From Promethearchaeota archaeon (GTDB lineage Archaea; Asgardarchaeota; Lokiarchaeia; Sigyniarchaeales; SOKP01), in NCBI GenBank assembly GCA_048938005.1, contig JBHLMQ010000079.1, positions 1 to 10,787 of the forward strand: 10,787 nt of DNA. The letters run 5' to 3'. The first letter of the stretch is position 1. Each line of letters starts with the position of its first letter. This document shows, piece after piece, positions 3,014 to 9,696 of this stretch. The position numbers and the translations under genes are program-made. The notes under the pieces are model-generated. The model was not told the origin of the DNA, ran no database searches, and saw only the letters and a list, made by a program, of their open reading frames with translations.

Positions 3014-6000
3014 ATGTTAATATTTTCATTAATAACAAAATATAATTTTATCATTTTTGGAGTCAATTTAATATTGATTAATGTAGAAGAGAAATCTGCT
3101 TACCCGTATATCACAAAGTTCAAAAAAGAACCATTTGAATCTTTTATTAGTATAAATGGGAGAGATATAAGAAACTTTTATTATAGTAAATATAATAAGT
3201 TAGATGGTTTTTATCAGTTTTTTAATCAAAATATATTAGAGCTCCCAAAGTTAAATTTAGAGACTGTTTTTTGGTTTCTCTTACTCCGAAAATATACGAA
3301 AAAAGATAATAAAGAAAAAAGAGAGGATTTATTTAAATTTATAAAAAAATGCGAAATTCAACAATATGATCAGTTAGGTTTCAAAATATCACCTGATTCT
3401 CAGAAAATACCTGATATCTATTCTACTTATCTAGCATTAGCTTGTCTAAAAAATTTGGGACTTTTGAGAGAATATTTATTATCTGATGCTCAGAATCAAT
3501 TTAAAGATGAAATTAAAAACTTCTTATTATCCCATAAGAAAGGAAGTATATTTTTACATTGTCATGATAAAGAGTGTGATATCTGTAAGAAAATATCACC
3601 TACACAAACATTCTATTATGTTTTGGAAATCTTCTCACTTTTAGGTATTGATGTTCGAATTAATAGAGACCAATTTCGTTCATATTTAGGCGATAGAAAG
3701 AGAGAACCATCTTTAATTTTTAGAGAAATTTGCCTTAAATTTTTAGATTTAGATTTAGAAGTTAAAGATAAGGAAATCCAATTCCTTCAACAACTTCAAA
3801 AAGGAAATGGTGGCTTTAGTTTTAATCAAATGGATAATATTGATACTACTTTTTGGTTAGTTTATGTTCTTGAACTTTATTCATGGTTATTAGATTATAA
3901 TCCTGCAGGGATTTATTCTTTTATAAATTTAAAATTAAAAGAAATTATAAATGCTCAAGATAAATGGAATTCTGTCAACTTAAATGTAACTTCAAAATTA
4001 ATAATTCTTTTATCTCTGATTTGGAAAAAATTCATTGATGAAATTGAAAGAGTATTATTTAAACAATTAGAAAAAGAAAAATTTGTAGATCTGAGTCAAT
4101 TAAAAACCACATTTGGTTCGGCAGAATATTATGAAGAAGTAATCTCTTATATTAATTTAAATTACAATTTCAAATTAACAATTTTAGATAATGATAACGA
4201 ATTTAAGAAATATATTAGTAATTTTAGCCATGGAAAGAGAGAATTTTTTCAAAATTTCTATGACAAAATCCAGAAAAATAGTATTGTTTCTCTTTCTGAG
4301 CTTTTCAAACAATATAGAGCGCTTAATTATGAACCATTGAAATTAAAAGAAGAAATTTTTCCTATAATAAAAGATATGGTATATAAAAATTATTTTAAAG
4401 GAAGTATTAGAACAAAAAAAGCCTTTTTAGGTTTGAAAACAAAATACCACTTCTATTTGAACAAGGTTTTGAAAAAGATTATAGTCTCTAATGTAGACAT
4501 AAATACAGATAGACTATATGAAGAGAAAGAAAAATTGGAAGATTTTAAGAATGATATCTATAATATGACGTTAAAATTAAAGAATGTGTCTATTCAGATA
4601 CAGGAAGAAATCGAGAGTTATCTTTTAATTGATGAGATAGATTATGCAAGAGATAGATTAAAATTTATTTTACGTAATGCTTTAATGGAAGCAGATTTTT
4701 TAAATGAAAATATTGAAAACTCATTTAATGAAGTTCTAGTATATATTAATTTTCAAACAGTTTTAGATTCTGAAATTGCTCAGTGGAATAAATTATATAC
4801 AGATTTACAAAAAAGGCTCACAGAATTAGATTCTTATCTTAAAGGGAAAATCCAAGAGAAAGAAGAATTAAGAAATTTAGATAATTTATTGGATACCCTC
4901 AAAGAAAAAGTGATCATTGTTGAAGAGGATTTGAACAAGAAACTTGATTCTTTCAAAAAGGTTTTTAATGAAAACCTTGAAAGAGATTATAGTAATGAAA
5001 AATTCAATTTTATTATTCATGAATTAAATAAGCTCTCTCAAGACATAAGAAAATACGATCAAATAGTATATAACGTCTCTCAGCAGGTTAAAACCAAAGA
5101 AAAAAAAATTATTAAAAAACATAAGAAAGTAATTGATAATTGGATAAGAGTTAAAGAGGAATTCGAGACAGAACTTAACTATTATACAGATGGTTTTCAA
5201 TTTTTTAACACTAATTTTAAAAAGATTGAGGAGATTAACGAAATTATAAAATTTGAGATAGAAAAAATCAGTGAAAAAGCGAAAACTGAAATTATCAAAA
5301 ACCAATTTCAAGATGCCTTTGAAATCATCAAAAAAGAATCAGATCTTTTATTGAACACAAAAATTAACGAGATCAAAGAGTTCCAATCTATTATAAAGAA
5401 AGAGATAAAAAGCAAGCAAAAACTCTATTTACTTTATCGTCATTTACAGGATAAACTAGAAAACTTAGAAGCTAATGTGATTGAATTAATCTCTGATCAA
5501 ATGAAATCTTTAAAGGCTAAAGTTATTGAAGAAAGAAATAGGGCTAAAATCGAAGATTTTGATAATTTTATTTCTCAAGAGATGTTTAAATTTAAAACAG
5601 AGTTAAATTCAGTTAAAACAGAATTAGATCATTCGAGTAATCTAAAAATTGAAGATGTTATTAAAAAATTCGATAATCTTCATAACAATTATGATAGAAC
5701 AAACAAAATATATTTAAAAAAGTTAAATGAATATAGTAAAAGCATTGAAGAATTTAATGAAAAATCAAAATTAAGTATTGTACAATGGGAAAAATTTAAT
5801 GATTTTTTTGCTAGTGAATTACCAATATTAAAAGAGGGATGCATTAACAATATAATTTTAAATAAAATACACGTAATGGCTATTGAAAAGAAAACAAATT
5901 ACATTAAATTAATCGATTTAAAGAATGAAATAAAATTATCATGTAAAGTTCTCATTAATAGATTAAGGGATATGATCGATATTTCGAAGATTAATGCAAA

Positions 6001-7483
6001 ACTTAATGAAGAGGAGAAATCTATTTTAGTATTTACAGATGATTATTATTTAAATAAAGAACTTAAGAATTATACTGACAATAACATATTAAAATTAAAT
6101 AGAGAGAGAATCGGAAAGATTTTAGCTTTATATGATTCGAGTGTAAGGAATAGAACATTGAAAACAAATATCTTAGAACTTGAAAATAGAATCAATGATT
6201 TAAGAATTTTTGAAAATGTTCTACCGAAACAGTTTTATGAAAAAGTTAAAACCCTTCAAATTAATCAAGGAAGAGAAGAATTTCTTCAAACCAAAGAATA
6301 TTTTGAATCAATTTTAGAAAATGAAAGAGCAGCTATAAAGAGGATAAAATATAGTTTAGAAGTATTTGGAAAAATGCAGAATTTCATCGAACAACAATTC
6401 AATACTCTTAATATTGAATTAAAAAAATATACTAATAAAGTTTTCAAAGGAGTAGAAGGGCATGATAATTATTTAAAAACTCAGGAAACTTTTGAAAGTA
6501 AAAAGAAAGATTTTAAGGAAAACTTAATAAAATCTCAAGAAAAGATTGAAGAACAAATAAATATCTTATCAAATAAACCTGGCGATTCAAGTAAATTAGT
6601 ACCTGAACTAAGGGAGTTATATGTCAAAGCAAAAAATAATTTTTCAAACGAATACAATAAAAAAATACAAAAAATTAGTGATTATGTTATTATATTAAAG
6701 AATGAATCATTCCGAGAACAAACATTGAACTTTATCAATAATAATAAAATACATTTGAGTCAATTGCTTGGTAATTTAGAAAGAAAAGTTGCAGACAATA
6801 TAGAAATTAAAGAATTCAAGAAATGTAATGTATTAATTCAAAAGAGAGCAAAAAGTATTGATTTAGAGATTAGGGAGATTAATAGACAACTTGATGCTAT
6901 GATAAAAGATTTTTCTAGACAGTCAAAAAATTTTGGCCAAATCTCAAAATTTATACTAGAAGACTTCAATAAATTTATTGATGAATATTCAGAGATTTTG
7001 AGTGAAAAAGTGAAAGCTTTGGAACGATTAATACTAAAATCGTACATTGATATGACCATTAAGGCTGTAGCAAACGAATATTTAACAATTGGTTTCTTAA
7101 ATAATGAACTAAAAATAAAAAAACAAAATATCCAGGACCATTTACTATTTCTAATAAGTGCTAGAGAATTAGAGGGTAAGTTTGACCCAAGGTTCATGAT
7201 CTACTTTGAAAATCCAGAAGTATTAGATGAATTAGATGAAACTGAATTAGAAGTAATAAAAAGTACTAATTATAAGCTGAATATGATGTTACGTCATCTA
7301 AAGAATTTTGCTAGCCAATATGGAAGCATTATCGCTTTTTTTGCTTCAATAATAACAATTTCATATTACTTATTCCTTTTCAGTGGAGGGAATCCTGCTG
7401 TAATTGCATTCCCTTTAATAATTACCATATTTGTTTTAGTGTATTACTTTCTAAAAAAAGGAAAAGAGGAAAAAATTGAATAA
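3014..7483 (+). CDS. Large uncharacterised protein: prenyltransferase/squalene-cyclase-repeat-like N-terminus, PCI-like winged helices, long coiled coils, C-terminal two-TM anchor
   Basis: Uninterrupted 1489-codon ORF. Repeats FIKKCE...GF...PDIYSTYLALACLKNLG and FLQQLQKGNGGFSF...DTTFWLVYVL. K/E/L/I-rich heptad regions. WH-like segments near 4270-4460, 5897-6045 and 7079-7213. Hydrophobic hairpin at 7319-7452. The real start may be TTG 3074 (GGAG at 3059-3062 upstream). Confidence 0.8.
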   Translation: MLIFSLITKYNFIIFGVNLILINVEEKSAYPYITKFKKEPFESFISINGRDIRNFYYSKYNKLDGFYQFFNQNILELPKLNLETVFWFLLLRKYTKKDNKEKREDLFKFIKKCEIQQYDQLGFKISPDSQKIPDIYSTYLALACLKNLGLLREYLLSDAQNQFKDEIKNFLLSHKKGSIFLHCHDKECDICKKISPTQTFYYVLEIFSLLGIDVRINRDQFRSYLGDRKREPSLIFREICLKFLDLDLEVKDKEIQFLQQLQKGNGGFSFNQMDNIDTTFWLVYVLELYSWLLDYNPAGIYSFINLKLKEIINAQDKWNSVNLNVTSKLIILLSLIWKKFIDEIERVLFKQLEKEKFVDLSQLKTTFGSAEYYEEVISYINLNYNFKLTILDNDNEFKKYISNFSHGKREFFQNFYDKIQKNSIVSLSELFKQYRALNYEPLKLKEEIFPIIKDMVYKNYFKGSIRTKKAFLGLKTKYHFYLNKVLKKIIVSNVDINTDRLYEEKEKLEDFKNDIYNMTLKLKNVSIQIQEEIESYLLIDEIDYARDRLKFILRNALMEADFLNENIENSFNEVLVYINFQTVLDSEIAQWNKLYTDLQKRLTELDSYLKGKIQEKEELRNLDNLLDTLKEKVIIVEEDLNKKLDSFKKVFNENLERDYSNEKFNFIIHELNKLSQDIRKYDQIVYNVSQQVKTKEKKIIKKHKKVIDNWIRVKEEFETELNYYTDGFQFFNTNFKKIEEINEIIKFEIEKISEKAKTEIIKNQFQDAFEIIKKESDLLLNTKINEIKEFQSIIKKEIKSKQKLYLLYRHLQDKLENLEANVIELISDQMKSLKAKVIEERNRAKIEDFDNFISQEMFKFKTELNSVKTELDHSSNLKIEDVIKKFDNLHNNYDRTNKIYLKKLNEYSKSIEEFNEKSKLSIVQWEKFNDFFASELPILKEGCINNIILNKIHVMAIEKKTNYIKLIDLKNEIKLSCKVLINRLRDMIDISKINAKLNEEEKSILVFTDDYYLNKELKNYTDNNILKLNRERIGKILALYDSSVRNRTLKTNILELENRINDLRIFENVLPKQFYEKVKTLQINQGREEFLQTKEYFESILENERAAIKRIKYSLEVFGKMQNFIEQQFNTLNIELKKYTNKVFKGVEGHDNYLKTQETFESKKKDFKENLIKSQEKIEEQINILSNKPGDSSKLVPELRELYVKAKNNFSNEYNKKIQKISDYVIILKNESFREQTLNFINNNKIHLSQLLGNLERKVADNIEIKEFKKCNVLIQKRAKSIDLEIREINRQLDAMIKDFSRQSKNFGQISKFILEDFNKFIDEYSEILSEKVKALERLILKSYIDMTIKAVANEYLTIGFLNNELKIKKQNIQDHLLFLISARELEGKFDPRFMIYFENPEVLDELDETELEVIKSTNYKLNMMLRHLKNFASQYGSIIAFFASIITISYYLFLFSGGNPAVIAFPLIITIFVLVYYFLKKGKEEKIE

Positions 7484-7542: not shown

Positions 7543-9696
7543 TTATTCATAGTCCATAATAAAATGAACATAATTATCGAGTTTTTTAAGGTATCCGAGA
7601 AAACATGCTTGATTGAAATGAAGATTGAATTTACGATCTATTATATCTTCATTACGAGCAAGCTCTTGAAATCTATTATAAGCTAACTTGCCATTCACTC
7701 CATAGGTTTTAATAATATTAATTAAGGATTTTATATTTTTATTTAAATAAATCTTCTGCTTATTAAATCTCTTACTTTTATTACTCTTCAATTTTATTAG
7801 TTTTTCTTTAAGGAGAGGTTCATCAAATTTCATTAAATCTGAATAAAATGTTATACCACAATCCTTGAGATATTTATATTCTTCACTATTACAGAAACTA
7901 TCTAATTGAGTAAGAATGTCTTCTATAGAACGGTTTACTAAATATTTTTGTTCTAATTCTTTTCTTTCTCGAAAATTTTTAATAACTTGGGATTTTAGGT
8001 ATTTATCATTTTGGATAGGGAATTGAATTTTCTTACGTTCAAGGGTCTTTATTAGGTTTAATTGCGTAGGATCAGATAGGACTGAGTTCATGGAACGTTG
8101 TTTTCGTTGGGCAACAATAAAAAAAGGAATATCTACTGTTTCTTCGGTCAAAAGTATATAGCATCTGCCCGGGGCATATCTACCAGTTCTTCCACGTCTT
8201 TGAATTAATCTAATTTCCGAAGGAACAGGTTCATAAAAGATTATTGCATCTACATTAGGAATATCTAAACCTTCTTCAGCAACACTTGTAGCGATTAAAA
8301 TGTTTATATTTCCTTCTCTAAATTGTTTCAATATTTCTATTTGTAATCGCTGGGGAAATCCATTATCTTCTTTTTTAGTTGCTTGACCGATGAATTTTTC
8401 GATTTTGAGTTGCTCTTTAAATTCATTTTTTAATTTAATCTTAAGATTTTCTGCCATTTCTCTGTATTGAGTGAAAACTAAAATTTTTTTATTATTAAAT
8501 TCTTCAATTTCCTCTTTGATAATTGAGATAACCTTTTTTAATTTAGGATGGGATAGATCTTTTTGTTCTTTGCTTTCAATTATGGAACTTATATGAGCAA
8601 AATGCTCTGAATTGATAATTCTTTTTGCAGATAAAATATCTTTATTCGCTTTATATTTAATTTTATTTAGAAAAGATTTAAAGAGAGAGATTTCTTGTGT
8701 TTCTATTAAATCTTTAGCATGAAGTATAGATATGCAACTTGAACAATAGGAATATACAGAAGGGATATCAAGTTTGTTTTGTTTAACTATCTCTATAATC
8801 CTTGGAGATTTATAGTATAACCATTCAAGGTATTCGTCCTCAGATAAATCTAATTCTTCCCCTTTTTCGTATTGAATAGATAATGTTAAATCTCGGGCAA
8901 TTCCTAAGAAATCTAATTTAGAGTAATACGGTTTATTTGGAGGAAGAAGATTATTTTTAACAAACCATCTCAAATATTTTTCAAATAAATTGTACCAAAT
9001 TGCACTTAACACTCTTAATTCAATAGGTAAATCTATTAAATTAATGAATGTATCAATATCATATATATAATTTCTTACATCCTTATCTTGATAACTTTTA
9101 AAGATAACATTTTCAATATACAAATTATCACAAATTTGCTGAATCCGCTCATAATCCTTTCCCGGTGAAGCTGTTAAACCTAATATCAATGGATCTGAAC
9201 AAGTATTAATATACTCATTTGAAATGAAATTATAAGCATAATTTCTCCTGGTTTTATGAGCTTCATCAAATATTATCAATGAAACATGTGTTAAATCATA
9301 GCGACCCCTCATCAAATCATTCTTAATTACTTGGGGTGTAGAAACTATAATTCTTGAGTTTTGATATAGTAGAATTCTTTTCTCTGGAGGTATTTTCCCT
9401 GTAAATGATGTAATTTCTACAAAGTCAATATCAAGGAACTTCTCACAAGAAGCTTTATGCTGTGAGACTAAAGGTCGTGTGGGGGCAAGAATTATGATTT
9501 TTGCTTTGGGATACTTTTTTAAACAATTAGATATTACTAAAATTCCAATTATTGTTTTTCCTAAACCAGTTGGTAAAACTACGAGAGAATTTTTACTTTT
9601 ACAAGAAGAAACAATATTCTTTTGATAGTCTCTATAAAATATTTGGTCTTTTTTCAAGAATGGCCCATTTAAATATGATTTAGGCTCTTTTTGCAT
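7543..9696 (-). CDS. hef: Hef/FANCM/Mph1-family SF2 DEAH helicase, without ERCC4 nuclease domain
   Basis: Q motif RDYQ, motif I VLPTGLGKT, Ia LAPTRPLVSQH, Ib STPQVIKND, II DEAH, III LTASPG, IV LVFTQYRE, V ATSVAEEGLDIP, VI QRRGRTGR. HPKL and FYEPVPSEIRLIQR are characteristic of archaeal Hef. Confidence 0.92.
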   Translation of the reverse strand: MQKEPKSYLNGPFLKKDQIFYRDYQKNIVSSCKSKNSLVVLPTGLGKTIIGILVISNCLKKYPKAKIIILAPTRPLVSQHKASCEKFLDIDFVEITSFTGKIPPEKRILLYQNSRIIVSTPQVIKNDLMRGRYDLTHVSLIIFDEAHKTRRNYAYNFISNEYINTCSDPLILGLTASPGKDYERIQQICDNLYIENVIFKSYQDKDVRNYIYDIDTFINLIDLPIELRVLSAIWYNLFEKYLRWFVKNNLLPPNKPYYSKLDFLGIARDLTLSIQYEKGEELDLSEDEYLEWLYYKSPRIIEIVKQNKLDIPSVYSYCSSCISILHAKDLIETQEISLFKSFLNKIKYKANKDILSAKRIINSEHFAHISSIIESKEQKDLSHPKLKKVISIIKEEIEEFNNKKILVFTQYREMAENLKIKLKNEFKEQLKIEKFIGQATKKEDNGFPQRLQIEILKQFREGNINILIATSVAEEGLDIPNVDAIIFYEPVPSEIRLIQRRGRTGRYAPGRCYILLTEETVDIPFFIVAQRKQRSMNSVLSDPTQLNLIKTLERKKIQFPIQNDKYLKSQVIKNFRERKELEQKYLVNRSIEDILTQLDSFCNSEEYKYLKDCGITFYSDLMKFDEPLLKEKLIKLKSNKSKRFNKQKIYLNKNIKSLINIIKTYGVNGKLAYNRFQELARNEDIIDRKFNLHFNQACFLGYLKKLDNYVHFIMDYE

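Follow-up and report, generated by a model that had tools for sequence, protein, structure and literature searches.

A stretch of 10,787 nucleotides from contig JBHLMQ010000079.1 of a Promethearchaeota archaeon of the class Lokiarchaeia (the whole stretch is called the window below) carries one very long gene on its forward strand. We propose that this gene encodes a fixed-length, tail-anchored scaffold or tether and not a golgin-like coiled coil, a reading that we regard as about evenly balanced between right and wrong. The product would be a cytoplasmic structural protein of about 1469 amino acids (aa), held at the inner face of the membrane by a C-terminal hairpin of two helices. Outward from the membrane, a PCI-like winged helix (WH) would be followed by three spectrin-like bundles, and a second such WH by four more; beyond these would lie two further WHs (one of them basic) and then a toroid resembling the beta subunit of protein prenyltransferases, with a probable zinc knuckle. 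The rod would serve as a ruler or tether that fixes how far from the membrane the ligand-binding pocket and the four WHs, acting as docking sites, are held. In this way the protein would organise a partner at the membrane, which might be a filament, a complex of proteins or the surface of a second membrane. A spectrin repeat measures roughly 5 nm, and judged from that length the fully extended molecule would span several tens of nanometres.

A structural, ruler-like role is supported by the even conservation of the sequence, the near-invariant lengths of its domains, the absence of a nucleoside triphosphatase (NTPase) motif and the absence from the genome of a PF01239 gene. A core cellular role is supported by the near-universal presence of the gene in its family, usually with one match per genome, and by the lack of any anti-phage match. 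Each module has a known counterpart, and we found no characterised protein with the whole architecture. The initial annotation, made from the sequence alone, had not recognised the architecture from any characterised protein, and indeed no characterised family matches the full length. The domain order that it set out, from a helical-repeat head through alternating WH and helical segments to two membrane helices and a short tail, is borne out almost point for point by AlphaFold2 (AF2) models of the head and of residues 480-1489. Residue numbers throughout are those of the 1489-codon frame opened by the ATG at 3014 (residue 1), and the features are as follows.

3014 to 3073, forward strand: conserved AT-rich upstream DNA, probably a false N-terminal extension, with GGAG at 3059-3062, 11 nucleotides ahead of the TTG
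3074 to 7483, forward strand: probable translated gene, 1469 aa, from the TTG start through the stop codon
3179 to 4036, forward strand: predicted alpha/alpha toroid head of the protein prenyltransferase beta-subunit type, residues about 56-341
3557 to 3586, forward strand: H-C-x4-C-x2-C motif (H182, C183, C188, C191), putative zinc knuckle, from the alignment
4082 to 4189, forward strand: predicted winged helix a (WH-a), residues 357-392, from DSSP of the AF2 head model
4283 to 4489, forward strand: predicted winged helix b (WH-b), basic, residues 424-492, from the AF2 head model
4505 to 5890, forward strand: rod 1, residues 498-959, four spectrin-like three-helix bundles in the AF2 model
5900 to 6031, forward strand: predicted winged helix c (WH-c), PCI-like, residues 963-1006, from the AF2 model and PF01399 in orthologue P0010
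6038 to 7057, forward strand: rod 2, residues 1009-1348, three spectrin-like three-helix bundles in the AF2 model
7079 to 7207, forward strand: predicted winged helix d (WH-d), PCI-like, residues 1356-1398, from the AF2 model and PF01399 in orthologues
7322 to 7453, forward strand: predicted membrane hairpin, hydrophobic helices at about 1438-1456 and 1462-1480, from hydropathy and model helices
7454 to 7480, forward strand: charged C-terminal tail KKGKEEKIE

The gene, its start and its distribution

The window has a G+C content of 25%, and a single very long open reading frame (ORF) runs through it from 3014 to 7483 on the forward strand, with 1489 open codons. This ORF is a real gene. A word-indexed search returned 217 homologues at E <= 0.001, and among the best 120 of the 217 all have E = 0, most are about 1465-1490 aa long (roughly a dozen are partial, at 1213-1448 aa), and all come from Asgard metagenome bins under names such as "hypothetical protein" or "conserved membrane protein of unknown function". 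A feature of this kind is far beyond chance.

Translation likely begins at the TTG at 3074, while the ATG at 3014 that opens the ORF is probably unused and the first 20 codons of the 1489-codon frame are probably untranslated. We located the N-terminal motif in 29 loci (the window and 28 homologous loci). In-frame stops interrupt the equivalent upstream stretch in 19 of these 29, and a TTG three codons ahead of V/I-E-E-K is common to most of them. Given these upstream stops and the recurring TTG, the product is most likely 1469 aa long, which is also the form given by the gene caller (P0002). Homologues start with M/V-E-E-K-S-A-Y-P-Y or at a point three residues before it; the window has GTA, which is no start codon, directly ahead of E-E-K, and the TTG at 3074 lies three codons upstream. 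Within the genus, the DNA from 3014 to 3073 is conserved enough to read as a common peptide (M-x-I-F-S-L-I-T-K...), and it probably holds the promoter and the ribosome-binding region. An N-terminal signal or anchor was considered and rejected, since the first 20 codons, though hydrophobic, show no conservation as coding sequence.

Among 301 genomes of the phylum queried with the whole protein, matches are present in 67 of the 68 from the window's own family, in five of seven from a sister family within the same order (at 25-27% identity along the full length) and in the single genome searched from another family of the class (1/1, 22% identity), with no match in the phylum's 224 other genomes searched. 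A profile of the head, run against 400 genomes, reached somewhat further into the class: it matched in 128/134 genomes of the window's family, 12/14 of the sister family and 10/12 from five further families. Outside the class its matches were weak and numbered just 11 (best E 3.3e-9); these may be toroid proteins of another kind. Source labels on some homologues, 58-70% identical, name other Asgard groups and are not reconciled with this genome-based tally. Most genomes have one match, second matches being contig-end pieces or a paralogue, and two complete single-contig genomes of the same order (G213 and G315) carry an orthologue.

Sequence conservation is even along the whole protein, and the lengths of the domains hardly change. 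Over 32 orthologues, rod 1 measures 461-480 aa (standard deviation 3.3), rod 2 measures 334-343 aa (standard deviation 1.5), and the length of each WH varies by +/- 1 residue; these near-invariant lengths persist at 16-22% identity. Such constancy is what one expects of a ruler, or of a surface in use throughout its length, and not of a loose spacer.

The protein has no match in NCBIfam, and in the ESM Atlas it falls only into its own cluster of 192 members ("hypothetical protein"). It also matches none of the PADLOC models of anti-phage defence, which makes a defence system unlikely. The full-text literature searched holds neither a characterised relative nor a paper on the family; supplementary tables, for example of Asgard orthologous groups, lay outside that search and may list it.

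The prenyltransferase-like head

The initial annotation had seen a prenyltransferase-type helical head, and the models and profiles agree. The head matches Pfam PF00432 with 34.3 bits against a cut-off of 26.5, and in an AF2 model of residues 24-500 built from 49 aligned sequences (predicted local distance difference test score, pLDDT, 89.7; predicted template-modelling score, pTM, 0.87) residues about 56-341 fold as an alpha/alpha toroid. The best rows of a Foldseek search of the PDB are all protein prenyltransferase beta subunits (probability 1.0, E 5.7e-5 and up), and the repeat motif G-G-F...D..(S/T)-T-(Y/F/W)..A/V-L is seen three times in the head. With the beta subunits of FTase, GGTase-I and RabGGTase/GGTase-III (PF00432), the head shares the toroid fold and a Pfam score over the cut-off; it differs from them in being fused to about 1150 more residues and a membrane anchor, and in having its own H-C-x4-C-x2-C/D insert.

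This insert lies in the loop between the second GGF-type hairpin and the next toroid helix. In an alignment of the window with 37 orthologues and one paralogue, 39 rows in all, the histidine is kept in 38, C183 and C188 in 36 each, and C191 in 27, with aspartate in its place in nine. The cluster probably binds zinc as a structural knuckle. Three distant orthologues have lost it by a clean deletion, with the remainder of the protein kept.

Could the toroid instead be an active enzyme, a zinc-dependent prenyl- or alkyl-transferase or a cyclase that works without an alpha subunit and is positioned by the rod? Its substrates would be cysteine-bearing proteins or isoprenoid lipids. We consider this decidedly unlikely. 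In favour of an enzyme, the GGF...D..(S/T)(T)(Y/F/W) repeats are kept, and the conserved His/Cys cluster sits in the class of loop that carries the zinc ligands of prenyltransferases. However, the cluster is missing from the three otherwise intact orthologues, and its four possible ligands make it look structural and not catalytic. A profile of the head searched against PDB sequences finds RabGGTase beta at E 4.6e-6, aligned repeat to repeat only and out of register; in this alignment the enzyme's P-D-V-C, presumably two of its zinc ligands, falls on P-D-I-x in the family, where x is no conserved cysteine, and at this repeat level the Asp-x-Cys signature is conserved in no repeat of the head. 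Nor does the window's own genome, rated 95.28% complete, contain a match to PF01239 (PPTA repeats), the gene expected for an alpha subunit. The lack of a conserved Asp-x-Cys and of a PF01239 gene disfavours a catalytic role, and the other PF00432 proteins of the genome look extracellular, which suggests that the fold is used outside prenylation here. Because it is specifically the beta subunits of protein prenyltransferases that the toroid most resembles, a ligand-binding pocket is favoured, and we predict that the head is more likely a prenyltransferase-derived binding module than an enzyme.

When the head was scored against 1.84 billion representatives, 44 proteins were found, either full-length relatives (about 1420-1500 aa) or shorter and apparently partial ones, and the sole multi-stretch match, a protein of 737 aa, is marginal. 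Judged from those 44 matches, the head is not found on other kinds of protein, the paralogue excepted. This paralogous family, seen for example at L038:5857-9609 on the forward strand of contig C2 in genome G144, has the same type of prenyltransferase-like head, which scores 60.3 bits against PF00432, a PCI-like WH at 29.2 bits and, at its C-terminus, a globular domain of about 150 aa that has no Pfam match; membrane helices are absent from it. Paralogue-like open frames of 1251-1253 aa are present in G261 and G322, and the window's own genome does not show one.

The other toroid proteins of the window's genome that match PF00432 lie at L049:922-2013 and L049:2170-3240 (both reverse strand, contig C72) and at L047:1084-3321 (forward strand, contig C74). 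They have a hydrophobic N-terminal segment resembling a signal peptide, and the sole complete ORF among them (in L049) has a C-terminal anchor as well. That ORF adjoins another which, by eye, resembles an actin-fold protein with CxxC zinc-ribbon inserts.

Rods, winged helices and membrane anchor

The two long helical regions were modelled together in residues 480-1489 (AF2, 47 sequences), with a pLDDT of 81.7, mostly 75-93, and a pTM of only 0.36, so that the model leaves the mutual placement of the domains open. In rod 1 the modelled helices are about 40, 30, 73, 30, 65, 36, 71, 32 and 41 residues long, followed by a WH; in rod 2 they are 37, 32, 62, 34, 73, 36 and 37 residues long, again followed by a WH. 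This alternation of helices of about 70 and about 32 residues marks the modelled rods as chains of three-helix bundles, each bundle's last helix running on into the first helix of the bundle that follows. The best matches in the VIA structural search are multi-repeat fragments of spectrin, plectin, desmoplakin, alpha-actinin and nesprin (nesprin-2), aligned over nearly the full length of the matched fragments (311/321, 303/317 and 205/205), with single three-helix bundles further down.

The seven units of about 108 aa also align with one another in register, weakly, in profile-profile comparison (probabilities of 91.5 for R4-R7, 80 for R6-R7, 79 for R2-R4, 76 for R4-R5 and 73 for R3-R7), and hhalign gives a probability of 90 for WH-c against WH-d. 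Together, the in-register units and the similarity of these WHs make the rod look like an old internal duplication of a block of repeats plus WH. The kinship with eukaryotic spectrin repeats is another matter. PF00435 (spectrin) has no match in the protein at E <= 1, and a scan of the window's genome with PF00435 misses the gene, so homology is not shown, and the three-helix bundles may well be convergent with spectrin repeats. A Foldseek search with the 1010-residue model gave nothing at E <= 0.001, with weak rows to PCI proteins and large solenoids, and a profile of the C-terminal half against PDB sequences gave just coiled-coil noise and a weak row to the WH of DDRGK1 (E 0.02). Proline and glycine are slightly enriched at the predicted inter-helix loops relative to the helices; as this enrichment is weak and gives no independent support, the bundle boundaries rest on the model.

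Compared with the rods of spectrin, alpha-actinin and plakins, the predicted protein has the same three-helix bundle of about 106 aa with a continuous helix C/A, and the model aligns nearly full length with two- and three-repeat crystal structures. It has only four plus three repeats, however, interrupted by WH domains, without the PF00435 match, and a toroid replaces the calponin-homology domains. The overall layout recalls nesprins and other KASH proteins. Here there are two membrane helices with a 5-residue loop, whereas KASH proteins have one helix and a luminal KASH peptide, and the head is a toroid where nesprins carry N-terminal calponin-homology domains. From SMC/Rad50-type proteins it differs in having no Walker A NTPase head and no such Pfam domain. 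The initial annotation had found no Walker A or B motif, and a regular-expression search of the whole protein agrees for Walker A ([AG]xxxxGK[ST]), Walker B not being part of that search.

These results bear on the golgin analogy from which the initial annotation had reasoned. It had described about 430 and 330 aa of coiled coil, which are modelled here as chains of three-helix bundles (about 460 and 340 aa of helices). Its extended, C-terminally anchored rod survives in part: a long anchored helical rod is predicted, and it would still be extended, although the bundles are spectrin-like, an outcome that the annotation itself had named as speaking against its proposal. A golgin-like vesicle tether would be a parallel dimeric coiled coil that catches vesicles or bridges membranes through a lipid-binding head, and a C-terminal anchor, a long helical region and a distal head are indeed present. 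But the monomer AF2 model has regularly broken three-helix bundles in place of a long parallel two-stranded coiled coil; sequence and length show a tight conservation that is not known for golgin coiled coils; and attachment to the membrane would be through a hairpin of two helices and not through a single tail anchor. We consider a golgin-like tether highly improbable.

The initial annotation placed a WH after the head and one after each rod. WHs are predicted at all these places, but two follow the head, not one. WH-a is preceded by a connecting helix of 36 residues (320-355), and another helix leads from it to WH-b. WH-b is basic in all orthologues examined, with a net charge of +7.4 +/- 2.5 over 38 sequences, while WH-a, WH-c and WH-d are near neutral. 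Profiles of WH-a and WH-b gave no matches among PDB sequences. For the other two, the PCI assignment comes from orthologues: PF01399 matches the WH-c site of orthologue P0010 with 28.4 bits against a cut-off of 22, it is above the cut-off at WH-d in five orthologues, and six orthologues in all score 26.2-37.8 bits at WH-c or WH-d, five of the six having been picked for precomputed PCI hits. At E <= 0.01, PF01399 is found in 25/37 orthologous C-terminal halves (best 9.6e-12). Weak Foldseek rows also lead to CSN, Rpn and eIF3 subunits, that is, to the PCI proteins of the COP9 signalosome, the proteasome lid and eIF3. Unlike in those proteins, the WH here follows a spectrin-like bundle and not a TPR-like solenoid, and there are two copies per chain.

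According to a paper on archaeal endosomal sorting complex required for transport (ESCRT) systems, the PCI variant of the WH is a module for oligomerisation, and WH plus coiled-coil segments recur as building blocks in archaea (PMC10936438); the available part of that paper makes no mention of the family of this gene. A complex prediction with two copies of residues 1229-1489, comprising the last repeat, WH-d and the hairpin, gave a score of 0.00 against a mark of 0.42 and counts neither way. Elsewhere in the window's genome, on contig C82, a 795-codon stop-to-stop frame (L051:430-2814, reverse strand) begins with cysteine-rich motifs resembling zinc ribbons, has two PF01399 matches and, by eye, about five tandem WH-like segments. 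BLASTP aligns WH-d of the big protein with this frame at E 2e-5.

The two membrane helices and the short charged tail of the initial annotation are recovered at 1438-1456, 1462-1480 and KKGKEEKIE. The helices have hydropathy peaks of 2.06 and 2.58 and are joined by a 5-residue loop (SGGNP), the tail has a mean net charge of +2.9 over 34 sequences, and both hairpin and tail are kept in the four examined orthologues whose identity is 21-27%. Basic residues stand on both flanks of the hairpin, and once the start is corrected there is no N-terminal hydrophobic segment or signal peptide. By the positive-inside rule, these two observations suggest that the whole protein is cytoplasmic: the bulk of it would lie on that side, and the C-terminus would return to it.

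The nearest rival to an outward-pointing rod is a scaffold that lies along the membrane or folds back on it at WH-c, so that the head, WH-a and WH-b return to the membrane. The four- and three-repeat rods would then form a bracket that confines filaments, be they actin-like, ESCRT-III or tubulin-like. EzrA in bacteria is thought to work as such a filament-confining arch. Like the protein described here, EzrA of Gram-positive bacteria is prokaryotic, membrane-anchored and cytoplasmic, with spectrin-like repeats; it is anchored at its N-terminus, where the present anchor is C-terminal, and it has neither toroid nor WH domains. EzrA is not among the 50 rows listed in the VIA structural search, which does not by itself exclude a similarity. 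Two rods of unequal, fixed length with a compact WH between them would suit an arch, the basic WH-b could bind acidic lipid head groups, and the pTM of 0.36 leaves the overall shape open. On the other hand, no contact between the rods is predicted, the filament partner is hypothetical, and the N-terminal part has no sign of membrane binding. We regard an arch or fold-back arrangement as unlikely.

Neighbouring genes, partners and cellular role

Upstream of the big gene, on the same strand, lie a gene for a membrane protein with a C13 (legumain-type) peptidase domain (478-1998) and one for a small membrane protein that is rich in N-x-S/T sites and has hydrophobic helices at its two ends (2179-2847), both kept mainly within the genus. 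Downstream, and tail to tail with it, a gene on the reverse strand (7543-9696) encodes a Hef-type helicase of superfamily 2, which scores 546 bits against NF010337, below the cut-off of 610, and has no nuclease domain among its Pfam hits. The initial annotation had asked whether domain order and synteny are conserved across Asgard genomes. Among the orthologues compared, domain order and lengths are kept; the neighbours vary, and around distant orthologues stand unrelated metabolic genes (CBS, FMN reductase, CCG/Fe-S, LarA, GDPD, radical SAM). The exception is the convergent helicase, present in 28/39 loci, including those of three orthologues of 25-44% identity.

The recurrence of this helicase is one reason to ask whether the four WHs are DNA- or RNA-binding modules through which the protein attaches nucleic acid to the membrane. 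Nucleic-acid binding is common among WH folds, and WH-b is basic. Against such a nucleic-acid or chromatin tether, the other three WHs are not basic, and WH-c and WH-d are of the PCI type described as an oligomerisation module (in the part of PMC10936438 available). The helicase gene is moreover convergent, and convergent genes have no transcript in common. Its recurring position may be no more than inherited synteny. We consider this tether very unlikely.

Some observations also weigh against the fixed-length scaffold or tether that we prefer. WH-c and WH-d of the window protein itself have no PF01399 match, staying below the reporting threshold. The loci compared gave no conserved operon partner, the convergent helicase apart. 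And the first membrane helix is strongly conserved, while WH-d is among the best conserved stretches of the protein, which suggests specific partners that our proposal leaves unnamed.

A bolder form of that proposal, which we hold to be doubtful, is an archaeal membrane skeleton. The protein would then be a fixed-length spacer of spectrin repeats that ties the Lokiarchaeial membrane to cytoskeletal or ESCRT-type filaments, with the PCI-like WHs linking molecules into a lattice and the head gripping a prenyl chain or a protein tail. If this were true, the toroid would be the nearest prokaryotic structural relative of the beta subunit of eukaryotic protein prenyltransferases, and the protein would work like nesprin or spectrin.

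Among prokaryotes, Asgard archaea are studied as the closest relatives of eukaryotes, and how their membranes and protrusions are shaped is an open question. Since the gene was not found outside its class in the genomes searched, it says little directly about the ancestor of eukaryotes. Within that one Asgard class it is near-universal, usually single copy and conserved along its full length, and its product would join in one membrane-anchored chain three modules best known from eukaryotic cell biology, namely the toroid of protein-prenyltransferase type, the spectrin-like repeats and the PCI-like WHs, a combination that is apparently undescribed. The orthologues in G213 and G315 may make localisation and cryo-tomography feasible, and the gene is a concrete, testable candidate for a membrane-associated scaffold.

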